This document shows positions 137-60,137 of a stretch of DNA of 64,000 bases, piece after piece. Location: assembly GCA_016699085.1 (NCBI GenBank), contig CP064958.1:271630-335629 (forward strand), written 5' to 3'. The notes beneath the pieces are model-generated. The model did not search any database and was not told the DNA's origin. It was given only the letters and a program-made list of their open reading frames with translations. The number at the start of each line of letters is the position of its first letter. Within the stretch, counting starts at the first letter, position 1. A program made the position numbers and the translations under genes. The DNA is from Candidatus Nomurabacteria bacterium (GTDB taxonomy: Bacteria > Patescibacteriota > Minisyncoccia > Phycocordibacterales > UBA9973).

Positions 137-700
137 TTACAAATCTACCTCAATGACCTTGTGCTCATAGACTCGTAACAAAAGTGTTTCAAGATCAGGT
201 TTAAGATTATCCAGTTTACCCTCATACTCTTGCGTGTAATGCGGGATCAGCTTTATAGGTAGAAAAGCTAAACCTTCAAACGAACTACCAGCACTCGGGC
301 TGTAAAATGCAGAGGTGAGGACATTTGCTCCTGCAGATTCACCGGCGACAATTTTTCCTTGTAACATTTCTTTCAGAGTAGGAAACTTTTTCAGCGCCTC
401 AAGCAATTTCAATGTTTTACCTCCCTGAAAGTAAACAATATCAGCTAAACGCAATTGTTCAATGAAAGATTCTTCCCTGGCAACATTAAAATAGATCCAC
501 TTTTGCCATTTATTTGCAGTAAATTCCTCCATTACTTTTTGTGTACTAGCCTCTATCCGGCCAGGTTCTTTTGCAAATGGCACAATTAAAATCTCTGGTT
601 CTTCGGGGGCATCTTTTAATATTTCTGCGTAGAAATCGTCGTTATCTTCATCTGTTTTTCCTGGAGTGAATCCTCCATGTAAAATAAATTTTGTTGTCAT
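137..700 (-). CDS. Peptidase S51 family protein (cyanophycinase/peptidase E-like)
   Basis: ORF 137..820. Family motifs are present (FILHGGF, QGGKT, IVAGESAGANVL). The likely start is the internal Met (MTTKFILHGGF, ATG at 698-700). The first 40 codons have no similarity and overlap upstream AT-rich DNA. Confidence 0.6.
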   Translation of the reverse strand: MTTKFILHGGFTPGKTDEDNDDFYAEILKDAPEEPEILIVPFAKEPGRIEASTQKVMEEFTANKWQKWIYFNVAREESFIEQLRLADIVYFQGGKTLKLLEALKKFPTLKEMLQGKIVAGESAGANVLTSAFYSPSAGSSFEGLAFLPIKLIPHYTQEYEGKLDNLKPDLETLLLRVYEHKVIEVDL

Positions 701-902
701 CCTTATTATTTTTAGGTGAATACAAAAGACTTTTAGAAATCTCCTGTGTTCACCTAAAAATGGATTGTATGGAAGAGCAATTATTTTGCATATAATAGCA
801 TAAATAATAGTAAAAGTCAATCAGTACTCTACATTTTGAGGCAATGAAGAAATGTAAAAATAAAAAGTCGGAAGTGGGGATACCGTATGATACAATAAAA
901 TC

Positions 903-1193
903 ATGTTTTACATGCTACAACTTAGAAAAATTGTTATTGCGATTTACGACTATCAGGTCAATACACCCGGAAGTACAATAAATGGGATGGAAGAGAACAA
1001 GATAATTGAGTATCTTATGAAAAAATATGATGCTTCCCGCGAAAAAGTACAAGCTAAGTTAAAAGAATTACAGAAAGAAAATATAATTGATGATGCCCTA
1101 AGTGGTAATGCTAATGAAAGAAAATTAGAACTAACGAAAAAGGGTTATAAATTAAAGCGTTCATGGATAAACGCTTTGATATTTGGGTTCTAA
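903..1193 (+). CDS. Hypothetical small protein
   Basis: 96-aa ORF in a gap between a convergent and a divergent gene. It is charged, coiled-coil-like, has no recognisable motif, and its start is uncertain. Confidence 0.3.
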   Translation: MFYMLQLRKIVIAIYDYQVNTPGSTINGMEENKIIEYLMKKYDASREKVQAKLKELQKENIIDDALSGNANERKLELTKKGYKLKRSWINALIFGF

Positions 1194-2573: not shown

Positions 2574-3254
2574 CAAATTATTGTCGTTTTCCAATAAGCT
2601 TAGAATGTACAGAAGTGTTCAGACAGTTCTGCCTTATTCCACCCTTAGAGGGGTGTTTATAACTTACCATCCTACCAGACAATTCTTTTTAGACTTGTAC
2701 TTCCGCTCTCTTGGTAGGATGCATTTACTTACTAAATTTCTGAAAATTTAGCTTTGCTGGTTCCGCCGAGAACGAAAGGTGGTACTACTAGTATTGTTAT
2801 AGTTATTTTCATAAATATAAAATAGTTAGTTAATAAACCTCTTCATTCTCGAAGAGCTGGCAATTTTTCTACCTAAACAAATAGATAATTTAAACTGCTT
2901 GTTTAGAACTATATCATTTACACATCGGAAAAGTTAATGTGAAAAGTGGAAAACATGTGATTTACTGTCTCCCGCAAAGTAGAGAATTCAGACAGGAACG
3001 TAAAATGCTTTCTAAAATTAAATCAAGACCAGAAAATTTATCATACCTAGCAAATTTTCCCTGGTAAATAATCGATTCTACGACTACCTCCCTTAGAGAA
3101 CTGCTCATCCAACCTCTTTTTTAAGGGGCAGTTCTCTATTTTTGTAAAGTTTTCTTATGAACCGAGATTTTCTCCAACTCACGAAATACCTTTATATATC
3201 AACGTGAAATCAAGAATTCCAAAATTTTTCTCACGTTTCAAATCTCAAAATTTG

Positions 3255-3327
3255 TGCGCCCGGTAGGAATCGAACCTACGACCATCTCCTTAAAAGGGAG
3301 CTGCTCTACCGACTGAGCTACGGGCGC
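3255..3327 (-). tRNA. tRNA-Lys (anticodon UUU)
   Basis: The minus-strand sequence GCGCCCGTAGCTCAGTCGGTAGAGCAGCTCCCTTTTAAGGAGATGGTCGTAGGTTCGATTCCTACCGGGCGCA folds as a cloverleaf. The anticodon loop is CUUUUAA with UUU at positions 34-36, the T-loop is GGTTCGATTCC, and the acceptor stem is 7 bp. CCA is not encoded. Confidence 0.85.
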
Positions 3328-3536
3328 ATATATCTACTTTAAAATCTACACTATTCTATGTTTTCTATTGAAGCCACTACGACTAGCTATGGCGCAAATG
3401 AATAAAAATTACAGACATTACTCTGTACTAAACGCTTTAAAAAGTAACATATTTACACACATAAATCAATATTGGTGGTAAATAAAATAGTTTACAAAAA
3501 CATACTTCACTCCGTAACCTGTGCTAAACTAGTACT

Positions 3537-3932
3537 ATGAAACCAAAAACCAAAATCAGTATTGCAATTGTTGTAGGGATTATTGTTCTTATTATTGCTA
3601 GTATCTTTATTAATAGCCAAAAAAGCACTGACCCTAAAGTACTTGCACCGATTGAGCAGTTTGCACAGTGTATAGCTGACAGTGGCGCCAAGTTTTACGG
3701 TGCTTTCTGGTGTCCTCATTGCGCCACCCAAAAGCAGCTCTTTAGTAAAAGCGCCTCCAAACTCTTGCCATATGTCGAATGCTCAACACCAGACAGTAAA
3801 AGCCAAACACAGATCTGTATTGATGCAGGCATCAAGAGCTACCCTACCTGGGTATTTACTGATGGATCAACACTCTCTGGTGAACAATCTCTCAAAACTC
3901 TAGGCGCTAAGACTAACTGCCCACTCCCATAA
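3537..3932 (+). CDS. Thioredoxin-fold thiol-disulfide oxidoreductase (DsbA/BdbD-like), N-terminal TM anchor
   Basis: N-terminal TM helix followed by a CxxC active site (FWCPHCATQK). It sits immediately upstream of a DsbB/BdbC-like gene with a 1-nt gap. Confidence 0.65.
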   Translation: MKPKTKISIAIVVGIIVLIIASIFINSQKSTDPKVLAPIEQFAQCIADSGAKFYGAFWCPHCATQKQLFSKSASKLLPYVECSTPDSKSQTQICIDAGIKSYPTWVFTDGSTLSGEQSLKTLGAKTNCPLP

Positions 3933-5931: not shown

Positions 5932-8319
5932 CTATTTCAATTCTCCCCAATGAGCACCCTCTTTGCTATGAACTTCGATTGGTACTGACTTAAGATTCTC
6001 AAGGAATGATGGCGGGATGATGTCTTGCATAGCTTTACCAATTATCTGCTTTGCCAGTAGTGCAACTGATGTGTCCACTTCATAGACCAATTCATCATGC
6101 ACCTGCAGTACAAGCAGTACCTTATCTACAATTTTGTTTTCTTCAAGCTTTACTTGAACATCCCGAATTGCCAATTTGACGATGTCTGCAGTTGCTGTAC
6201 CTTGGATTGGCGCATTGATCGCCATGCGCTCTGCCATAGCGCGTACAAATGGCATTTTAGATTTCAATCCTGGGAAATAACGTTTACGACCAAAGAGAGT
6301 CTTGGTATAGCCATACTTATACGCATCAGCTTTGACCGTATCTAAATACTCTCGAATTGTAGGAAATTGTGCAAAGTAATTATCATAGAATTCCTGTGCA
6401 GTTTTCCGATCAGTACCGAGATTCTCCCTCAGTGCCGTAACTCCCATACCATAGAGGATACCGAAATTAATAACTTTGGCGCGACGGCGCATTTCATTAT
6501 CTACTTTATCTTCTGGTACACCGAACACTTTCGAAGCAACAGCAGCATGCACATCTTTGCCTTCTTGAAAGACTTTAATCATAAAAGGATCTTGTGATAG
6601 AAGTGCAGCAATACGAAGCTCGATTTGGGAATAATCAAATGCTAAGAGCACACTTCCCTTTTTGGCAACAAAAGCATTCCTGATATTTCTACCAAGTTCT
6701 GTGCGAGTGGGAATATTTTGCAAATTTGGATCTTGGGAGGCAAACCTACCAGTTGTTGTGCCTGCCTGGATAAACTTGGCATGCAATCGTTTGTCGTCAC
6801 TTATAAGTAACGGCAACGTGTCTATATATGTCGAAAGTAATTTCTGTAATTCCCGGTGCAGTAATATGTCAGCAACGATTGGGTGAGCATCACGAAGCTT
6901 CACAAGTTCGCTTTCCCGTGTCGAACGCGCTCCGCCTGCAGTTTTCTTGAGCTTTGTGCCCGTACCCTCGTTGATCGCCAGTTCGTCGAAGAGTATATCT
7001 CCTAGCTGCTTCGGTGAATTGATATTAAACTCTCTGCCTGCATGTTTCCATATTTTAGCTTCGAGACTAGCAAGTTCCTTGTGGTACGTCTTCGAAAGTT
7101 TTTCTAAATAAGCCTTGTCGACTTCGATACCTGTCTCATAGATACCATCAACGATAGGGATAATCGGAAGCTCTATTTGTTCATACACATATGACAAGTC
7201 ATTGGTTTTGATATCTTCTAGGATCTTTGTCCGCGCGCTATCAAATGTAGCAACATGCGCATAGGCGAGCATGTCAGCAAGGGTAATATTGGTTAATTCT
7301 GAATTCAAAAGCCAGAGAGCGATTGCAGTTTCATTAAATAATTTCTGGTCGACTTGCTCTTGGGGTATTTCTGTTTTTTCTTCTGCCACAATTGCAACAT
7401 TAAAAATTGTTCCAACTCGAGCAATAAGACTTCGAAATTCATACTCACGGAAAAGTATTTCGATTTTAGAAACATCAATATTGTCTCGAAACGTTTTCTC
7501 TGGTAGTTGAAATGCTATAGCTGCATCACGCCTAATGGTTGCTAGTGTTTTAGAAAAAAGGGCTTCATCCTCTCCTTCTTCGAGAAGTGTAATGATGCGG
7601 TCAGTGATGCCTGCTTTCTTGAAAGCTGCTTTGTCTTTTTTTAATTTCTTATAAATCTCTTCAATGGTGCCAAATGTTTGAATAAGCGTTGTTGCTGTTT
7701 TCTCGCCAATACCTTTGATGCCAATAATATTATCTGACGGATCACCACGAAGCCCTTTATAGTCAACGAGAAGTTTCGGCTTGAAACCATAGCGTGCCAC
7801 AACCAAATCTTCATTATAGAGAATCGTGTCATTGATGCCTTTCTTCAAGGTAAAGACTTGGACCTTCTCATCATCGACAAGCTGCAATGTATCCATATCA
7901 CCTGAGGCAATAATAATATCTATATCTTTATCTTTTTTCATATTCTCAACAATTGTTCCCAAGACATCATCAGCCTCAAATCCCGGCGCATCATACATAG
8001 GAATATTGAATGCTTCGAATATAGTTCGAGAACTTTTGATCTGAGTGACGAGGTCATCATCGGCTTTCATGCGTCCAGCTTTGTACGCATCGTATACTTC
8101 GTGGCGAAATGTTTTCTGCGGCAAGTCATAGGCGGCAACAATATAGTCAGGCTTGAGATCGGTAATTATCTTCATGAGCATAGTCGATAAACCATAGAGC
8201 GCCCCAGTCGGCTCACCCTTTGAGCTCATAAAATCAGGCAAGGCATGATAGGCTCGGTGAATAATCGCATGAGAATCAAGCAAAATTAGGCGTTTTTTGA
8301 TTATTTTCTTATCTCTCAT
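5932..8319 (-). CDS. polA: DNA polymerase I
   Basis: 795 aa. It has a 5'-3' exonuclease N-terminus (LLDSHAIIHRAYHALP), a pol A motif A DYSQIELR and a motif C QVHDELVYE. Confidence 0.95.
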   Translation of the reverse strand: MRDKKIIKKRLILLDSHAIIHRAYHALPDFMSSKGEPTGALYGLSTMLMKIITDLKPDYIVAAYDLPQKTFRHEVYDAYKAGRMKADDDLVTQIKSSRTIFEAFNIPMYDAPGFEADDVLGTIVENMKKDKDIDIIIASGDMDTLQLVDDEKVQVFTLKKGINDTILYNEDLVVARYGFKPKLLVDYKGLRGDPSDNIIGIKGIGEKTATTLIQTFGTIEEIYKKLKKDKAAFKKAGITDRIITLLEEGEDEALFSKTLATIRRDAAIAFQLPEKTFRDNIDVSKIEILFREYEFRSLIARVGTIFNVAIVAEEKTEIPQEQVDQKLFNETAIALWLLNSELTNITLADMLAYAHVATFDSARTKILEDIKTNDLSYVYEQIELPIIPIVDGIYETGIEVDKAYLEKLSKTYHKELASLEAKIWKHAGREFNINSPKQLGDILFDELAINEGTGTKLKKTAGGARSTRESELVKLRDAHPIVADILLHRELQKLLSTYIDTLPLLISDDKRLHAKFIQAGTTTGRFASQDPNLQNIPTRTELGRNIRNAFVAKKGSVLLAFDYSQIELRIAALLSQDPFMIKVFQEGKDVHAAVASKVFGVPEDKVDNEMRRRAKVINFGILYGMGVTALRENLGTDRKTAQEFYDNYFAQFPTIREYLDTVKADAYKYGYTKTLFGRKRYFPGLKSKMPFVRAMAERMAINAPIQGTATADIVKLAIRDVQVKLEENKIVDKVLLVLQVHDELVYEVDTSVALLAKQIIGKAMQDIIPPSFLENLKSVPIEVHSKEGAHWGELK

Positions 8320-17821: not shown

Positions 17822-18346
17822 ATGTCTGGTCATTCCAAATGGTCACAAATCAAACGACAAAAAGGCGCAACCGATGCCAAGAAAAGCCAAATCTTCGGCA
17901 AACTTTCACGACTCATTTCAACAAATGTGAAATTGGCTCATGGAGATCGTAACGCACCATCAGTTCGAGCTGTTATAGAGAAAGCCCAAATGGCAAATAT
18001 GCCGAAAGACACAATCGAGCGAGCGATCCTTAAAGCCCCTGAAACCAAAGACATGGAATACATCACCTATGAAGCATATGGCCCCGGCGGCGTTGGGATC
18101 ATGGTTGAGACATTGACCGACAACCGCAATCGCACAGCACAAGAAATCAAGCATATTTTTTCAAATCATACGTTCGCACTTGCGGGCATCGGATCTGTTA
18201 CCTGGGCATTCGTAAAAGAAGACGGAGAACTAAAAGCAACAACAACTATTGCCCTATCTGATAAAGATACCACCATCCTTGAAACACTAGTTGAAGAGCT
18301 AGAAGCTAATGAAGATGTACAACATGTCTACACCAATGCCGAATAA
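17822..18346 (+). CDS. yebC: YebC/PmpR-family probable transcriptional regulator (short form)
   Basis: Starts MSGHSKWSQIKRQKGATDAKK (the canonical YebC N-terminus). The ORF table extends upstream to 17675, but similarity begins at the ATG at 17822. Confidence 0.85.
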   Translation: MSGHSKWSQIKRQKGATDAKKSQIFGKLSRLISTNVKLAHGDRNAPSVRAVIEKAQMANMPKDTIERAILKAPETKDMEYITYEAYGPGGVGIMVETLTDNRNRTAQEIKHIFSNHTFALAGIGSVTWAFVKEDGELKATTTIALSDKDTTILETLVEELEANEDVQHVYTNAE

Positions 18347-18827
18347 TAAAATAATTTTAGGCATTGACCCAGGTTATGACCGGATTGGTGTAGCTATACT
18401 TGAAGGTAGTAAAAACTTACTTTACTCAGATTGTATTACGACAAACCCAAAAGATACTTTTTGTGATCGTCTGGTTATGCTCGGCAATGATGTTGAGAAA
18501 CTTATTAAAAAATACAAACCTAAATTACTCTCGATTGAGAAACTTTTCTTTACCACCAATCAGAAAACTGCCATGCAGGTAGCTGAGGCAAGAGGGACGA
18601 TTATGTATCTCGCCCGGCAAAATGGCTTGGAAATTATGGAGTTTACACCAATGGAAATCAAAGTCGCAGTTACTGGTTATGGTAAAGCATCCAAAGAAAA
18701 CGTACACGATATGGTAAGAAAATTAATAGATGTTCCAATAAAAAAGACTTTCGATGATGAAATAGATGCCATAGCGATAGCACTCACCGGCGAGACATGT
18801 CAACAGTCATACAAGCGAGGTAAATAG
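18336..18827 (+). CDS. ruvC: Crossover junction endodeoxyribonuclease RuvC
   Basis: IILGIDPGYDRIGVAIL N-terminus typical of RuvC. The proposed start ATG at 18336 overlaps the yebC stop by 11 nt. The yebC-ruvC linkage is classic. Confidence 0.85.
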   Translation: MPNNKIILGIDPGYDRIGVAILEGSKNLLYSDCITTNPKDTFCDRLVMLGNDVEKLIKKYKPKLLSIEKLFFTTNQKTAMQVAEARGTIMYLARQNGLEIMEFTPMEIKVAVTGYGKASKENVHDMVRKLIDVPIKKTFDDEIDAIAIALTGETCQQSYKRGK

Positions 18828-54515: not shown

Positions 54516-55433
54516 CTACAGTGGTGTTTGTAATCGCACGAGTATTTCTTTGATTGTATCAATACTCGTGGTGACGAGAATAGTTTCTGTATCCAAAAAT
54601 ACGTATACCATCACAATATTCCCTGCACCGTCTCGCAATACGCGACCATCACGATTCTCAACAATAATATCCTCAAATTTTTTCTGAAAGAGTGCTGCAT
54701 TGTCGCCCTCGATAGACAGACCAAAGAGTTCATACATATTATCAAACAGTTTGCGTTCCCATGTGAGCATACCCGAGAAAGCTGTGTCATAGGAATTTGT
54801 TTTAAATATGAGAAACGGTACATTGACTATCTCCATATGCGTACCGAACATGTACTCTTCATCAAATGATCGTATGAGTGTTGGGTCGGCATCACTTTCG
54901 AGCTTCTTCAAGAATTCTTCTGTCGTAAGCATTCGCGCTCCCGGATAGGTCGGTGCCGTGAGAAGAATGGCAGTGATTTTGCCGGCATCTTGCGGCAGTA
55001 TCAATTTCTCCCGTATAGCATCTACAAGCTGTTTTTTCGTGAGGAGGCTACCAGTATCGACGCTTTGGTGCGCATCAGCAAAGATGAGTGTCTCTATGGT
55101 TGGTTTTTTCTCGACGACGATTGGGTCACTATCGTGAAAGAAATACAAATAGCCAAAGATACCGCCTGCGATAACAAGGCAGGCAATCGAACCAACGAGG
55201 AATGCAATATTTTTCTTTGCGACAGGAGAAATAAGTTTGGCAGTATCTTCTTTTTTCTTTTGTTCGGCGATAGCGATCTTGATCACCGAGCCTTGCTGTT
55301 CGCGTAGTGCTTCTGCCATATCGGACTGGTAGGTGCGAAGTGGCTCGATATTCTTGGCAAATAGCGGTTTAGTTTCCGGCGTAGCAGGCTTGGGTTCCTC
55401 TGGTATTTTTTGATCTGGAAGTAATGGATCCAT
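54516..55433 (-). CDS. Hypothetical bitopic membrane protein
   Basis: Pro-rich N-terminus, TM IAFLVGSIACLVIAGGIFGYLYFF, and a ~200-aa C-terminal domain. Confidence 0.45.
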   Translation of the reverse strand: MDPLLPDQKIPEEPKPATPETKPLFAKNIEPLRTYQSDMAEALREQQGSVIKIAIAEQKKKEDTAKLISPVAKKNIAFLVGSIACLVIAGGIFGYLYFFHDSDPIVVEKKPTIETLIFADAHQSVDTGSLLTKKQLVDAIREKLILPQDAGKITAILLTAPTYPGARMLTTEEFLKKLESDADPTLIRSFDEEYMFGTHMEIVNVPFLIFKTNSYDTAFSGMLTWERKLFDNMYELFGLSIEGDNAALFQKKFEDIIVENRDGRVLRDGAGNIVMVYVFLDTETILVTTSIDTIKEILVRLQTPL

Positions 55434-55437
55434 AGCT

Positions 55438-56343
55438 CTATAGTAGCGTATTAGTTGTTTCTTTTCGAGTATCTTGGAATTTAGTTTTCTTTATAAAAAA
55501 ATATTTTCTGAATATTCGTTTGATTTTGTCCGCTTTATGTTTGTTGCGACTAATGACCAGTTTATTTTTACCGCGAGTTCTGATAATTTCACTTAGCCTC
55601 AATTGGGCGTCAGTATTCCATTCAGTCGTGTCCGTATAGAATATATTGATCGATTCTGTGGTTTTTTGATCAAGCCAAGCTTCAATCAAGAAATCTCCAA
55701 AGATGTTGACGTAGTAGTTCTCTTTTGGAAACAATTTCTCTTCCGTCATATAGTAGAAACTCTTTTTGTTATCAAATTCCTTGCTCGCATATTTATCAAG
55801 TGGTGTTTTCCCTCCGACAATCATATAAATTTCTTTCCCATGTTCGAGCACCTCATCAAATAGCACTCTCTCACTCGCATGGCGCGCCAAGAAGAACCAT
55901 TCATGCGGATCATACATATAGAGGGGCTCGTGCTCACTTGTTGCGTTATTGAGAATACCAAATGCGTGTCCCCAAAACTGATCAGTTAGGTCTGGGTTTT
56001 TAAATGTGTATGAAATCTTGTCTCCATCTGCAAGTTTCAAGAAGTCTTCACTTGGAGTACTTGTCGACGTGTACATGCTCTCTGCTGTGCGGAAGTAGTC
56101 TGTCATTTTGTTGATCCAAATATGTGAGAGTGTTGCGCGTTTAGCATAGACTACCACCACTTCTTCCTTTTTGAGTTTCCTTAGGGCCTGATAGAAGCCC
56201 TGCTTTGTTGTTTTGGGGCGTACTACCTTAATTTTCTCTAGGAGTTCAATTGTTCCCGACGATCCCTTTTGTAGGTAGTTGAGAATATATTCTTCCAGCG
56301 TCTTTGGCTCATAAATCATCATATAAGTATAGTAAATAGTCAA
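55438..56343 (-). CDS. Hypothetical protein, paralog 1 of a ~300-aa family (wHTH-like N-terminus)
   Basis: Shares blocks with 58774..59637: KQGFYQALRKLKKEEVV vs KQAYYKALRELIKEEQVI, ISYTF...FWGHAF vs QSYTF...YWAHLF, HEWFFLARHASE vs HEWFMYDRPEAE, KLVISRNKHKADKIKRIFRK vs KILVDHNKSKAHILKKRFTK. Confidence 0.55.
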   Translation of the reverse strand: MTIYYTYMMIYEPKTLEEYILNYLQKGSSGTIELLEKIKVVRPKTTKQGFYQALRKLKKEEVVVVYAKRATLSHIWINKMTDYFRTAESMYTSTSTPSEDFLKLADGDKISYTFKNPDLTDQFWGHAFGILNNATSEHEPLYMYDPHEWFFLARHASERVLFDEVLEHGKEIYMIVGGKTPLDKYASKEFDNKKSFYYMTEEKLFPKENYYVNIFGDFLIEAWLDQKTTESINIFYTDTTEWNTDAQLRLSEIIRTRGKNKLVISRNKHKADKIKRIFRKYFFIKKTKFQDTRKETTNTLL

Positions 56344-56492
56344 ATAAAAGTAAACAAAACGCTTACTTTATATATAAAATAAGCTTATTGATAGACATAT
56401 ATCTATATTTATGTCATAATCTGTAAAGATCGGGTTTGATTGGCAAAATGGGGCAATTCTAGAAGCCCCTCTTACTAATTAAATCCAAACAA

Positions 56493-57281
56493 ATGAAAAA
56501 TTCAAAAAAATTACTTATTGTAGCGGGAGCTGCAGGCGAAATCGGAACCGAGTATTGCAAGATGGCCATTGCACACAAAGTTAATTGCATTGGGATTGTT
56601 AGAAATCGAAGAACAGGAATCAAATCACCTTTCTTTACTGAAGTAGTATGTGGCCTCGACAAAGAAGCATCCATACATGAGTCATTTGCAGATGTTGATT
56701 TCAGTGAATATAAAGAAATCATTTATCTGCACACTATTGGCGTAGATAACTTTGATCCCCGTGGTTACCCAAATATAGAGCCCTTAAAAACAATTCCGCT
56801 AGAGATCTATGATTCAAATGTAAATTCATTTAAGTATTTACTTAGGTATTGTGGAATGAAGATCAGTGCGTTAAATGATGGTAGAAGAGACTCTAAGATT
56901 AGCTTGAAAATTGCAATTATTGCAGGAGTTTCAGACAAGTACACTCCCTTTGTAATTGAGCCTTTTTGTGAAGCTAAATTTATCTTGAGACAGTATATTC
57001 AATCATATATACAACTGCATCCGGATTGGATTTCAGGACTCTCGATAAATATTACCTCAACAATTACTGCTTCTGCATTACGAGTACGGCCACATGCAGA
57101 TACCACGTACTGGCTACAGCCATCTGAAGTAGTTCAGAAATCATTTGAAACGCTTATCTCAAACGCCCGTAAGTACAAGGAGATGGATATCATAAAAAAC
57201 TTTCCAGATTTTATTCCTGGATATTATATGTCCAATAAAGATTTGTATGAAAAATGGAGCAGAGAAACAGGTGTTAAGTAA
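56493..57281 (+). CDS. NAD(P)-binding Rossmann-fold protein (SDR/epimerase-like)
   Basis: N-terminal LLIVAGAAGEIGTEY glycine-rich dinucleotide-binding motif. Confidence 0.55.
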   Translation: MKNSKKLLIVAGAAGEIGTEYCKMAIAHKVNCIGIVRNRRTGIKSPFFTEVVCGLDKEASIHESFADVDFSEYKEIIYLHTIGVDNFDPRGYPNIEPLKTIPLEIYDSNVNSFKYLLRYCGMKISALNDGRRDSKISLKIAIIAGVSDKYTPFVIEPFCEAKFILRQYIQSYIQLHPDWISGLSINITSTITASALRVRPHADTTYWLQPSEVVQKSFETLISNARKYKEMDIIKNFPDFIPGYYMSNKDLYEKWSRETGVK

Positions 57282-57393
57282 TAATCTAAGGAATTTCTGT
57301 CGATTAATCTTCAGAAATTCCTTTCATTATTCAGCTCACGATATTTCGTGGGTTGATAGTGAAATTGCCCTTTGTTAACTTAAAAAGTACATT

Positions 57394-58011
57394 ATGAAAA
57401 AGGATGTTTCTGAAATTCTTGCCTTTGTGTTTGCTAAAATTGTAGGTTGTATTTTCTTTGGTTGGCTAACATACCTCGCTGGGATTCTTGTAGTTCTAGC
57501 AGTACTGGATGATAATCAAAACTTGTTTTCAACATTCGGTTATTCCATCTTTTGTTTGGGCTCACTGATCTTTGCCGTATTTTTTCTTGCAATGAGTGAA
57601 GAAGATTTAAGGAAAAAGCGGAAAGATAGGAATACTAACTGGAGAAACTTGGCTCCCAAACTTTGCCGCCAGCGGATCATTATTGAAGCAATCACGGATC
57701 ACTGTGTCACACCAGAAGAGTTCAAAGACTATCTTTTGAAACTCTCTCATGTTGTCGGCATGCGATTACTGGAGCATGGCAAAGATCCTAACCCTTCTGC
57801 CTATGACGCCGAGAATATGGGTTACGGTGGCTGGATTCATTGGGTCACTTCCGGCGCGCATATGTATTCGTATCCTGCCGAGGTCACAGGTGGTGCAGGA
57901 CATTTGCTTAGTGTCGATGCCTATACCTGTAAACCGTTCTCCGTCGAGAAAGCTGTTAAATTCACCCGAGAGTATTTCAAACCGAAAGACATAGTCTGGC
58001 GGGAATTTTAA
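57394..58011 (+). CDS. Membrane-anchored S-adenosylmethionine decarboxylase-like (pyruvoyl AdoMetDC family) protein
   Basis: Two N-terminal TM helices. The C-terminal motifs WVTSGAHMYSYPAE and LSVDAYTCKP resemble the SpeH/SpeD-type ESHIxIHTWPE and DVFTCG motifs. Moderate. Confidence 0.4.
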   Translation: MKKDVSEILAFVFAKIVGCIFFGWLTYLAGILVVLAVLDDNQNLFSTFGYSIFCLGSLIFAVFFLAMSEEDLRKKRKDRNTNWRNLAPKLCRQRIIIEAITDHCVTPEEFKDYLLKLSHVVGMRLLEHGKDPNPSAYDAENMGYGGWIHWVTSGAHMYSYPAEVTGGAGHLLSVDAYTCKPFSVEKAVKFTREYFKPKDIVWREF

Positions 58012-58170
58012 CTCTATCCTAAGTCGTATTTTATGAAAATGAAATACGACTTTTTCTTATAGTCAGTAAACTTAAAGTTTATTAATTTATAATAACAAAC
58101 AATAAATTATATATCTGTCAATATTCCTGCTATGCTTATCACAAAATAAGTTCACTAAAAATCAAACAAG

Positions 58171-58740
58171 ATGAAAGAAAAATATTATGTAATAGCATCC
58201 ACTGCCTTCTTGTTGGTCTTGATTACTGTTTTGGTCTCTTTACCTTCTTGTGGTTTCCATCTGGTGAAATTTGGGTCACAACGCGCTTTCATTATGAAAA
58301 CTGGGAAAATAGTTTCAGTTCGTAGTGTTCCGACAGATAAGGAAATCGGGGATACAATCATTGTGTTCCATACTAGTGACCAATCAGATACAACATATGT
58401 TTGGATAGAAGATGACTTTGCTCCGACACATGAGCAGGAGGGAATAAAAAATCAAAGCGGTGAGTGTAGGTATAGGGCAATAATCGTCTCTCCTGGCACG
58501 AAACAAGTGACCCCAACTAATGCTTTTACTGTTGATACTTATTCGAGCTCGTATAATCCCAATACAAATTCATTCGAAGTTGGATTCGATGTTAAAGAAA
58601 GAAATACAACAGGAAAGGTTCAGGTATTTGTAAAGCAAGGAGAAGATTGCAGAACAACCAACCATAAGATTTTCGACAGTTTATTAGTAGTAACTCAGTA
58701 TGCAGACACCTACAGATTTATTTCATTTAAAGAACGTTAG
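58171..58740 (+). CDS. Secreted/anchored hypothetical protein
   Basis: N-terminal hydrophobic segment VIASTAFLLVLITVLVSL, a beta-rich body, and a terminator hairpin at 58746..58775. Confidence 0.45.
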   Translation: MKEKYYVIASTAFLLVLITVLVSLPSCGFHLVKFGSQRAFIMKTGKIVSVRSVPTDKEIGDTIIVFHTSDQSDTTYVWIEDDFAPTHEQEGIKNQSGECRYRAIIVSPGTKQVTPTNAFTVDTYSSSYNPNTNSFEVGFDVKERNTTGKVQVFVKQGEDCRTTNHKIFDSLLVVTQYADTYRFISFKER

Positions 58741-58745
58741 GGTTC

Positions 58746-58775
58746 CAAAAAACCAGACAGAATGTCTGGTTTTTT
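58746..58775. terminator. Bidirectional intrinsic terminator
   Basis: AAAAAACCAGACA-gaa-TGTCTGGTTTTTT. Confidence 0.75.
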
Positions 58776-59637
58776 ATATTTTGTCCTCCAGATTTTTAGG
58801 AATGACAAAATTTTTCGTAAAGCGTTTTTTGAGTATATGGGCTTTTGATTTGTTGTGATCGACAAGTATCTTGGACTTCCTGTGCTTGGATAATATTGCT
58901 CGTAGTTTCTTGTCAGCTTCTTCGTCATATACTTTTAGCGCTCTAAACAATATGTCGATTTCATTTGCAACTTTCTCATCATAGCGAGTCGTAATGATAT
59001 AGTCTCCCATCACGACAATATTGTCTGTGAGGGGAAAATTGAAACTCTCATCGATTGCAACTTGGACAGTATCGGTCTGATATTTTTTCTTAAAAGAAAT
59101 TGCCATTGGTGTCTGCACACCAAGTGTTGTGAAGAGTTGGTGCCTTTTCTTCTTGATTAAATCAAATAAGTTATTTTCAGCTTCTGGCCTGTCATACATG
59201 AACCACTCATGATGGTTATAGAAAAATATTGGTTCACCTTTTAGTTCTTCGGCCAACAGTAGAAAAAGATGTGCCCAATAAATATCAAGTTCGGTAGTTG
59301 ATGTGAACGTATATGACTGTATGCGTCCTTCTCGTTTGGAAAGCCTCTTAACAATACCGTATGCACTCTCTGCTTGTTCAACAAATTTGGCAATTTTTGC
59401 AATCCAAACAATATTTAACGATACACGCCGTCCATGTTTTATTACCTGTTCTTCTTTAATAAGCTCACGAAGTGCTTTGTAATAAGCTTGTTTCGTTGCG
59501 TCAAATGGTCTTGCAACTAAATCCATTAATTCGAGGCTATCCTTTTCACCAGCAACAAGCTCAAGTACGATTGCGCCTTTCAACCCTATTACGCTTCCCG
59601 GGAAAATATTGTGAGTAAACTTTTTATTTACTATCAT
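58774..59637 (-). CDS. Hypothetical protein, paralog 2 of the ~300-aa family
   Basis: See the paralog 1 alignment blocks. Confidence 0.55.
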   Translation of the reverse strand: MIVNKKFTHNIFPGSVIGLKGAIVLELVAGEKDSLELMDLVARPFDATKQAYYKALRELIKEEQVIKHGRRVSLNIVWIAKIAKFVEQAESAYGIVKRLSKREGRIQSYTFTSTTELDIYWAHLFLLLAEELKGEPIFFYNHHEWFMYDRPEAENNLFDLIKKKRHQLFTTLGVQTPMAISFKKKYQTDTVQVAIDESFNFPLTDNIVVMGDYIITTRYDEKVANEIDILFRALKVYDEEADKKLRAILSKHRKSKILVDHNKSKAHILKKRFTKNFVIPKNLEDKI

Positions 59638-59715
59638 AATATAACTATCGCATTTTTTGAAATGGTGTCAATAGCATTGTATGCTTAGAAAAATTGTTAA
59701 CTTAAATCAAAACCA

Positions 59716-60105
59716 ATGGCACTCTGCGGATTCAACAAGCAAATGATAGATGGCGTCAAGAATTTTTTTGAAGGCGCTGCTGATCAAATCACTATTCGTG
59801 CTCAAGAAGAAAATATGGTTATTCGAGAAGTAATTGAAAATATTGAGCTACCAGAACTTGATTTTATGATTTCTGAACTTTCACGTTCAGGCAAAGATGA
59901 TGTATTCTTGGGTCTTTCCTATCTAGCGAGAGCACAATACAAAGTTGGACTCAAAGGAGTTAAAGAAGGTGGTGATATAAAAATTGTTTGTAATACATTT
60001 GTCGAAAAAGAAATTCCCCGACTTTTGGAACTTGAGGATAAGTATTATAAAGAATTGCGACCAAAATATGGAATGGAAGAAGCAATAAAAAGAATGTTTT
60101 CGTAA
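59716..60105 (+). CDS. Hypothetical protein
   Basis: 129-aa ORF with a plausible RBS-less start, followed by a strong terminator. Confidence 0.45.
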   Translation: MALCGFNKQMIDGVKNFFEGAADQITIRAQEENMVIREVIENIELPELDFMISELSRSGKDDVFLGLSYLARAQYKVGLKGVKEGGDIKIVCNTFVEKEIPRLLELEDKYYKELRPKYGMEEAIKRMFS

Positions 60106-60108
60106 ATT

Positions 60109-60137
60109 CAAAAACCGACTCATCGAGTCGGTTTTTT
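60109..60137. terminator. Bidirectional intrinsic terminator between 59716 gene and pnp
   Basis: AAAAACCGACTC-atcg-AGTCGGTTTTTTT. Confidence 0.8.

Follow-up and report, generated by a model that had tools for sequence, protein, structure and literature searches.

Why should two paralogous genes on one strand of a bacterial chromosome enclose three genes on the other? We asked this of a 64,000-nt stretch of the Candidatus Nomurabacteria contig CP064958.1 (positions 271,630 to 335,629; hereafter the window), where two minus-strand open reading frames (ORFs), designated paralog A and paralog B, lie on either side of three plus-strand ORFs for an SDR-like protein, an AdoMetDC-like protein and a putative secreted protein, sec189. 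A first-pass annotation had placed these five ORFs correctly, and had read them as an old duplication with an insertion between the copies or as a cassette bracketed by the paralogs. We conclude instead that the locus is two regulator-cargo modules in tandem, inside a recombination hotspot between lineages, and not a repeat-bracketed cassette. It is likely, in our judgment, that A and B are autoregulating repressors or activators of their divergent cargo genes, and that they resemble the archaeal protein TrmBL2.

Two probable regulator-cargo modules in tandem

A and B are genuine old paralogs. BLASTP aligned A (55438-56343) with B (58774-59637) at 31% identity over 272 residues (E 2e-37). Since this alignment ran end to end, from the N-terminal helix through the C-terminal basic tail, the similarity is not limited to low-complexity blocks, a weakness that the annotation itself had allowed for. 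When a profile of the family was searched against the six-frame ORFs of the window, exactly two members were recovered (E 8e-128 and 2e-80), the next best match having an E value of 0.8.

The relationship between the paralogs and their neighbors was examined in 80 species-representative loci collected for comparison of the family neighborhood (related loci are given L-numbers), 75 of which included sequence upstream of the family gene. Local profiles were built for three neighbor types in the window, SDR-like, AdoMetDC-like and orf129-like, the last named for orf129, the gene divergent from B. Every match to these profiles was upstream of a family gene and on the opposite strand. The upstream neighbor was divergent in 73 of the 75 loci (25 SDR-like, 11 AdoMetDC-like, 8 orf129-like and 29 other), which bears out the suggestion that the family adjoins variable cargo. 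As single-copy loci have opposite-strand genes directly upstream, the SDR-like and AdoMetDC-like genes of the window are A's own divergent partners. The two modules, moreover, are found independently of each other: L001 and L012 have A-SDR-AdoMetDC without B, sec189 and orf129, and L007 has sec189-B-orf129 without A, the SDR-like gene and the AdoMetDC-like gene.

These comparisons bear on the explanation given first, that of an old tandem duplication with a three-gene insertion or a mobile cassette with paralogs as its ends. Co-oriented paralogs around opposite-strand genes are what it would predict, the layout is repeated in L013, and the region is a recombination hotspot. However, SDR-like and/or AdoMetDC-like genes are already on the opposite strand beside the family gene in single-copy loci, the A and B modules are separate in L001/L012 and L007, and nothing suggests that the A-B pair moves as a unit. 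GC content gives no sign of a foreign island either: the island genes range from 0.35 to 0.43 against a window mean of 0.394. GC does not set the variable stretch apart, and codon comparison was likewise uninformative. The annotation had held that orthologous regions with the same three genes but no flanking paralogs would count against it; this was found in part, in that the same cargo families lie beside a single family copy. We regard the duplication or cassette as quite unlikely.

A large family with a predicted TrmBL2-like architecture

A word-indexed search with A returned 148 homologs, which come from Paceibacteria, Nomurabacteria and other Patescibacteria and are all annotated as hypothetical. 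When 1.84 billion representatives were searched exhaustively with a profile, 1,806 clusters at 50% identity were recovered (E ≤ 1e-3), 409 of them at E ≤ 1e-30, and nearly all of the family clusters are 270-290 aa in length. The family is near-universal across its clade, mostly with one copy per locus. No model in Pfam, NCBIfam or PADLOC matched A or B, and PHROG gave marginal matches only, none convincing. A literature search found no paper on TrmB-like proteins in Patescibacteria, nor on winged-helix factors of the Candidate Phyla Radiation (CPR). A defense system was considered and rejected, as none of the seven genes had a PADLOC match and their PHROG matches were marginal.

Both of the motifs pointed out in the annotation are conserved among 69 aligned members. 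In the N-terminal motif 'TTKQxxYxxLRKL', K40, Q41 and Y44 are invariant; in 'HEWF', which had been called invariant throughout, this applies to H140 and F143, whereas E141 and W142 are at least 90% conserved.

The structure of A was modeled with AlphaFold2 from a 69-sequence alignment (mean pLDDT 90.4, pTM 0.75). In the model, helices 9-17, 24-34 and 40-52 and a beta-wing at 56-65 form a winged helix-turn-helix (wHTH), in agreement with the winged-helix-like N-terminus recognized earlier from the sequence, and the recognition helix bears the invariant K40, Q41 and Y44. A long helix (67-85), which may mediate dimerization, is followed by an alpha/beta domain (102-272) with the alpha/beta sandwich of the phospholipase D (PLD) fold. 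The best full-length structural match of the model is archaeal TrmBL2/TrmB. It has the domain order of these proteins, i.e. wHTH, dimerization helix and C-terminal PLD-like domain, but not the sugar-binding C-terminal subdomain of TrmB sensu stricto, since the protein ends after the PLD-like domain at ~280 aa. TrmBL2 likewise has no sugar-binding subdomain (PMC4877046).

The C-terminal domain departs from the PLD nucleases Nuc, NucT, Zucchini/PLD6 and BfiI. The catalytic motif HxK(x)4D (HKD), searched for as a regular expression, was present in 1 of 86 members, which was neither A nor B. By secondary-structure register against Nuc, N202/Y203/Y204 (NYY) would occupy the strand on which catalytic PLDs have HxK, i.e. 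at a pocket or interface; an alternative placement of 'GKNKLVISRN' on this strand was dropped because the order of secondary structures places NYY there. The invariant polar residues of the domain are D114, H119, H140, E151, D210, D218, K254 and N260.

A palindrome upstream of the family genes

If the family proteins are DNA-binding regulators, a conserved target would be expected near their genes. When k-mers were counted over the 75 divergent intergenic regions, AAAGTAAA was present in 52, the maximum in shuffled sequences being 17. This k-mer is a half-site of the inverted repeat AGTAA-N9-TTACT, within a 19-bp palindrome AGTAAA-N7-TTTACT. The exact inverted repeat was present in 51 of the 75 upstream regions, always with a spacer of 9 nt. 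In 717,187 nt of related loci it occurred 52 times, and 51 of these occurrences were immediately upstream of a family gene. A symmetrised position weight matrix (PWM) gave 69 hits, with 67 adjoining a family start. When the 12 core positions were scored in 86 members, 46 sites were perfect, 27 had one mismatch and 6 had two; two or fewer mismatches were thus found in 79 of the 83 members with upstream sequence. The window itself contains 4 exact sites (P1, P3 and those at 518 and 18408) against 0.10 expected. A further copy with one mismatch, P2, is conserved in L013 and L007. The two regulators and their control regions are laid out as follows.

55438 to 56322, minus strand: paralog A, 294 aa from ATG 56322 (the ORF lister starts at TTG 56343); ratio of nonsynonymous to synonymous substitution rates (dN/dS) 0.06
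56326 to 56354, minus strand: predicted promoter of A, TTTACT-17-TATACT, with the ATG 3-6 nt after the -10
56349 to 56367, no strand: candidate operator P1, palindrome AGTAAACAAAACGCTTACT between A and the SDR gene, PWM score 19.9
56392 to 56420, plus strand: predicted promoter of the SDR gene, TAGACA-17-tgCATAAT
58065 to 58083, no strand: operator-like palindrome P2, AGTAAACTTAAAGTTTATT, one core mismatch, ~90 nt upstream of sec189
58774 to 59637, minus strand: paralog B, with an alternative start at TTG 59583
59614 to 59632, no strand: candidate operator P3, palindrome AGTAAACTTTTTATTTACT just downstream of the predicted promoter of B, PWM score 16.6
59644 to 59671, minus strand: predicted promoter of B, TTGACA-16-tgcGATAGT
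59657 to 59685, plus strand: predicted promoter of orf129, TTGAAA-17-TATGCT

The palindrome and the recognition helix change together in a few members. Among members with upstream sequence, four or more mismatches were seen only for L016_7597 and L023_8145, two highly diverged extra copies whose recognition helices have lost the invariant Lys (TKQ to SFQ or TIQ). In the sister pair L082/L077, both half-sites are changed (ATTAAA/TTTAAA ... TTTAAT) and the helix is altered (YKELRKL). The palindrome thus appears to behave as expected for the binding site of a dimeric winged-helix protein. The hallmark of such a regulator, a conserved palindrome that overlaps its own promoter and co-occurs with its gene, was present.

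Promoter geometry and a proposed mechanism

The position of the palindrome relative to the genes is regular. The consensus of 53 aligned sites consists of a TTTACT half-site, ~17 nt, an extended -10 (tGcTAtacT), 6-7 nt and the ATG, with 29 nt as the modal distance between the end of the palindrome and the start codon. On its far side the family consensus has an opposite-strand hexamer, TTGACA/TAGACA, separated from the palindrome by 24 nt. The window follows this geometry. At A, the P1 half-site nearest the gene (TTTACT, minus strand) coincides with the predicted -35, while the -35 of the SDR promoter at 56392 is 24 nt from P1 and that of the orf129 promoter at 59657 is 24 nt from P3. An ATG 6-7 nt after the predicted -10 implies a leaderless mRNA, and the leaderless arrangement (56319-56331 in the window) is seen in most family genes. 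The start assigned to A, TTG 56343, has to be revised, as the homologs point to ATG 56322 or 56319 (MMIYEP/MIYEP). B, like one clade of the family, departs from the usual layout in having its own predicted promoter upstream of the palindrome. P3 overlaps codons 2-8 of the annotated B ORF, and TTG 59583 is 30 nt after the palindrome; B may therefore start at either ATG 59637 or TTG 59583.

We propose that a dimer of the family protein would bind the 19-bp palindrome, which is found with almost every family gene. Where the layout is the usual one, as it is at A, the proximal half-site would double as the -35 of the regulator's own leaderless promoter, so that binding would shut off the regulator's own transcription (autorepression). 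The same dimer would be centered at about -70 of the divergent cargo promoter and could from there activate or modulate the cargo gene. The C-terminal PLD-fold domain, presumed to be non-catalytic, would probably bind an effector or mediate oligomerization. The cargo slot is evolutionarily fluid, being occupied by atypical SDR, AdoMetDC-like, orf129-like, SAM (S-adenosylmethionine)-methyltransferase, SLOG-like or orphan genes. The comparisons themselves demonstrate the paralogy, the fold, the lack of HKD, the co-occurrence and geometry of the candidate operator, the variability of the cargo, mosaic recombination and purifying selection; within this mechanism we infer DNA binding, dimerization, any effector and the sign of regulation. 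In wiring, though only in wiring, the scheme resembles that of LysR-type regulators, with a divergent regulator gene and an operator that lies over its own promoter and at about -65/-70 of the target promoter; the fold and the family are entirely different.

The coincidence of half-site and -35 invites another explanation, namely a conserved bidirectional promoter that is read by RNA polymerase and sigma or by another regulator, the family protein acting elsewhere, e.g. on up305 (the gene downstream of A) or on the cargo proteins. The half-site is indeed a -35-like hexamer at the right distance from an extended -10, and binding of the protein to the palindrome is something we infer and do not observe. 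Nevertheless, a promoter leaves the distal half-site unexplained, and the site is absent from other promoters in 717 kb. Furthermore, the site and the 'TKQ' Lys are both lost in the extra copies of L016 and L023, and an invariant wHTH recognition helix needs a conserved DNA target, the palindrome being the only one nearby. We consider this explanation very unlikely.

A third explanation takes its cue from the structural match. TrmBL2 of Thermococcales is an abundant tetramer that coats DNA largely non-specifically. The family protein could likewise be a nucleoid-associated protein of low sequence specificity, the palindrome then being a promoter element or the site of another factor. That TrmBL2 is the best full-length match and shares the missing subdomain, that the family is near-universal in its clade with mostly one copy per locus, and that the gene-proximal half-site coincides with a -35 box all fit such a role. 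The distal half-site, on the other hand, has no promoter role, as the divergent -35 is 24 nt beyond it, yet symmetry and spacing are kept in 51 of 75 regions, and in L082/L077 it is both half-sites that are altered. The site is also essentially confined to the regions upstream of family genes and is gone exactly where the recognition-helix Lys is lost. We consider a chromatin protein unlikely. The likeness of A to TrmBL2 (PDB 5bpd, 5bpi, 5box, 5bqt) is one of fold and domain architecture, including the end after the PLD-like domain. The family differs in having no detectable sequence similarity to TrmBL2, in being bacterial (CPR) rather than archaeal, and in being tied to one conserved palindrome and a divergent cargo gene where TrmBL2 has little specificity; a conserved, specific palindrome argues for specific binding. 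From the sugar-responsive regulators TrmB and TrmBL1 (PDB 3qph, 2f5t; PF01978 and the accompanying C-terminal domain family) it differs in failing the Pfam TrmB model and in that its cargo is not sugar transport.

Several observations weigh against autoregulating TrmBL2-like regulators as the explanation for A and B. The Pfam TrmB model (PF01978) matched neither A nor B even at E ≤ 1 and matched 1 of 69 family members weakly (E 0.0054); hhalign against two Pfam-TrmB proteins from related genomes returned a probability of 0.4%; and a profile search of PDB sequences found neither TrmB nor TrmBL2. As these sequence tests of TrmB membership fail, we describe the family as TrmBL2-like in architecture and not as a member of the TrmB family. 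The link between protein and palindrome appears to consist of co-occurrence and a little co-variation, effectively two or three independent events. In addition, it is unusual for a dedicated metabolite-sensing regulator that its orthologs should face unrelated cargo, and the many invariant polar residues of the C-terminal domain would also suit an enzyme. Finally, two exact palindromes of the window are inside coding regions, at 518-536 (ORF 137-820, minus strand) and at 18408-18426 (RuvC-like ORF 18309-18827, plus strand). Both are below the PWM threshold and have different spacers, and they could be chance occurrences or extra sites of a regulon. The ORF with the palindrome at 18408 comes just after a YebC-like gene.

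If autoregulation by a TrmBL2-like protein is correct, this would be the first family-wide operator for a CPR regulator. CPR/Patescibacteria have tiny genomes, are mostly uncultured and are rich in proteins without functional annotation; to our knowledge, almost nothing is known about gene regulation in these bacteria. The TrmBL2/TrmB-like fold has so far been studied mainly in archaea. A family of ~1,800 clusters would gain a TrmBL2/TrmB-like fold, a candidate target in AGTAAA-N7-TTTACT and a conserved promoter architecture in which a leaderless, autoregulated gene is set at a constant distance from a divergent target promoter. No new principle is involved; what is gained is a concrete handle on CPR gene regulation together with an unusual hypervariable partner slot.

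Paralog B as a probable, diverged duplicate

B has few relatives. A word-indexed search with B found itself and one match at 30%. Close relatives among the collected loci are limited to L007 (99.7%) and L013 (90%), and the best non-self matches otherwise, at ~35%, are the primary copies of its local clade. In a neighbor-joining tree, B has a long branch and falls outside the main family. On the basis of the tree and of these best matches, membership in the orf129-associated clade was rejected, and an origin of B by local duplication is favored by the sequence comparisons. B is under purifying selection, with a dN/dS of 0.13 against L013, and has its own predicted promoter, candidate operator and divergent partner.

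The residues that B retains and those that it lacks fall in different parts of the protein. Among 42 positions conserved in at least 90% of the family it keeps 30, including R35, K40, Q41, Y44, W69 and HEWF; in the C-terminal domain it is without N202/Y203/Y204, E214, D176 and Y190. Because the DNA-reading residues and the operator are kept while the C-terminal domain is partly remodeled, B probably binds the same operators, its effector response being altered or lost. The reading that we favor for B is a lineage-restricted duplicate that has diverged fast but is functional, with an altered effector or oligomerization surface; B may cross-regulate or heterodimerize with A.

Genuine Pfam-TrmB proteins of 247-252 aa are encoded near the family gene in L001 (3718-4461, plus strand) and L011 (3388-4146, plus strand), in the latter beside RuvC. 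As they are unrelated by sequence to A and B, these genomes hold two separate TrmB-like architectures. The 247-aa protein occupies the slot of B in L001 and was considered as a B ortholog; this was rejected, as BLASTP and hhalign found no relationship.

Divergent cargo across relatives

Read along the minus strand, the order of genes in the window is PNPase / orf129 <- B / sec189, AdoMetDC-like, SDR <- A -> up305-DksA-ComM. The cargo genes, their terminators and the left border are the following.

54516 to 55433, minus strand: up305, a membrane protein gene 4 nt downstream of A; conserved left border of the variable region, with DksA and ComM next
56493 to 57281, plus strand: atypical SDR-like Rossmann gene, divergent cargo of A, with an allele swapped relative to the closest relative
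57288 to 57323, plus strand: terminator hairpin after the SDR gene, -17.1 kcal/mol, z -6.0
57394 to 58011, plus strand: AdoMetDC-like gene with an N-terminal membrane-anchor extension (domain 57628-58011), a recurrent family partner
58021 to 58052, plus strand: terminator hairpin after the AdoMetDC-like gene, z -7.0
58171 to 58740, plus strand: sec189, a small protein with a signal/lipobox-like N-terminus
58747 to 58775, no strand: hairpin terminator of the convergent sec189 and B genes, z -4.5
59716 to 60105, plus strand: orf129, divergent cargo of B
60110 to 60136, plus strand: terminator hairpin after orf129, z -6.4

As had been stated, each of the three enclosed plus-strand genes has its own terminator, the hairpins folding far better than shuffled sequences. 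The names given to these genes were kept as labels; they rest on weak remote homology or on N-terminal sequence features. The SDR-like protein matched Pfam Epimerase only (E 0.073), a model that matched 4 of 15 SDR-like members, and the profile of its family matched an SDR structure (PDB 3imf) weakly over the N-terminal 80 residues (E 0.004); G12, G15 and G18 are invariant, i.e. the glycine-rich Rossmann motif is kept. The AdoMetDC-like protein matched PF02675 at E 4.7e-4 and 20.9 bits, below the curated cut-off of 25. Its family profile matched a proenzyme structure (PDB 2iii) weakly (E 0.003), with 'TS' on the cleavage site 'ES' and 'YTC' on 'YTCG', and S75 and C101 are invariant in 16 homologs. 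The membrane extension at its N-terminus is also present in L008 and L022 and absent in L001 and L013. For sec189, the description as secreted is based on a hydrophobic stretch at the N-terminus and on the lipobox-like motif LPSC, and no family was found in searches of Pfam/NCBIfam-type models. The orf129-like proteins share an MPLCGFN N-terminus and an invariant Cys-Gly, and no confident structural relative was found for them. Homologs of orf129 are the divergent partners of one whole clade of the family. The idea that orf129 is a diverged AdoMetDC-like paralog from a duplicated two-gene module was rejected, since there is no similarity and orf129 represents a separate partner family tied to one clade.

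The 29 other neighbors, of 79-365 aa, are almost all mutually unrelated singletons. Partner type follows the phylogeny of the regulator, in which one clade goes with orf129, one is AdoMetDC-adjacent and several go with SDR, so turnover of the cargo is slow. Loci with extra copies (L013, L016 and L023) are tandem arrays of minus-strand cargo facing a plus-strand regulator, and their extra cargo comprises class-I SAM methyltransferases and SLOG/LOG-like proteins. The diverged extra copies in L023 and L016 are each paired with a SAM methyltransferase of 226-229 aa, and in L023 with a SLOG/LOG-like protein as well (stretches 6799-8033 and 8996-10202 of L023 and 6410-7099 of L016). They add to the regulator-cargo pairs that co-vary. 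L079 has two tandem orf129-like paralogs (337-813 and 786-1193, minus strand) upstream of a single family gene; cargo, too, can thus be duplicated.

The recurrence of AdoMetDC-like, methyltransferase-fold, SLOG-like and atypical SDR cargo hints at SAM-, polyamine- or nucleotide-related accessory metabolism under control of the regulator. In L016, an AdoMetDC-like domain is fused to an N-terminal domain of class-I methyltransferase fold, MTS/PrmA-like (2780-3808, minus strand). An enzyme that produces decarboxylated SAM pairs with one that uses it, an aminopropyltransferase. The fusion recalls that pairing and hints that the AdoMetDC-like proteins may be real SAM decarboxylases.

Mosaic evolution by recombination between lineages

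L013 is a true close relative of the window, with identities of 98% for ComM, 96% for DksA, 96% for up305 and 97% for PNPase. In the variable region the identities are 85% for A, 90% for the AdoMetDC-like protein, 80% for sec189 and 90% for B. The A...B layout recurs, but L013 has no orf129 and carries, in place of the SDR of the window, an allele with 24% identity to it. Synonymous divergence (dS) from L013 is 0.41 for up305, 0.34 for B and ~1.4 for both A and the AdoMetDC-like gene. In L007, B, sec189 and orf129 are 98-99.7% identical to those of the window (B dS 0.006), although ComM is 74% and up305 49% identical; P2 is the left edge of the segment that is common to the two. A is 90% identical to its counterparts in L001/L012, whose ComM is 61% identical, and the SDR of the window is 64-65% identical to the SDRs of L016 and L018.

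The comparison with L001 locates the exchange. DNA similarity of ~84% extends over A, the A-SDR spacer as far as the start codon of the SDR gene, the spacer between the SDR and AdoMetDC-like genes, and the AdoMetDC domain, the SDR ORF being excluded. We take this pattern to be a precise swap of the SDR ORF between conserved flanks. Its junctions are at ORF borders in these flanks (56499 and 57313) and not at the palindromes, as would be expected of ordinary homologous recombination. Judged from these alignments, the stretch from up305 to PNPase is a hotspot of inter-lineage homologous exchange, at which whole ORFs are swapped between lineages that share only 60-75% identity in their housekeeping proteins.

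Could the family protein itself drive the turnover? It might be an enzyme, i.e. a winged-helix-targeted nuclease or phosphotransferase of PLD fold that cuts or recombines at the palindrome in an integron-like or a defense/addiction system. The positions of the swap junctions speak against this, as do the slow, phylogeny-bound succession of cargo, the presence of HxK(x)4D in 1 of 86 members and the lack of any PADLOC match or PHROG match of weight. Of the explanations weighed here we give this one the least credence. Scarcely more probable is a related idea, in which the regulator gene, bidirectional promoter and palindrome form a CPR 'expression slot' for exchanged accessory genes and the PLD-fold protein cleaves or exchanges strands at the palindrome by means of its invariant His, Asp and Lys residues; if true, this would be an integron-like platform for gene capture on a different catalytic fold. 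The layout does recall that of an integron (intI, attI, Pc and cassettes), in which a conserved gene and a slot of variable genes, each with its own terminator, diverge from a conserved promoter region. In contrast to an integrase, the family protein has no tyrosine recombinase or integrase domain, the swaps resemble homologous recombination and the cargo tracks phylogeny. At the cargo borders, neither an attC-like sequence nor a shared repeat was found, and the terminator hairpins are of unrelated sequence.

Genes for XerC/D-type tyrosine recombinases are found a few kb or less from the family gene in L010 (7858-8784, directly downstream) and L008 (11334-12260). Their proximity in two distant genomes may be coincidental synteny.

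Other features of the locus

On the left border, up305 is probably co-transcribed with A. It evolves much faster than its neighbors, with 31-49% identity in L001, L007 and L016 where ComM is at 61-74%, and its position ahead of DksA-ComM is kept despite this fast divergence. At the place of sec189 in the window, the L001-L003 genomes have a 615-aa protein with no Pfam match (L001 4582-6429, minus strand).

A conserved element of ~40 nt, ATTATTCAGCTCAyGAAATTTCGTGGGTTGATAGTGAAAT, lies at 57326-57366, between the SDR terminator and the start of the AdoMetDC-like gene. It contains the inverted repeat CACGAxATTTCGTG and may be a second type of promoter or operator. It is also found in L001 (6960-7011 and 3052-3125) and L013 (3931-4029), and the second copy in L001 is upstream of an unrelated gene of 117 aa.

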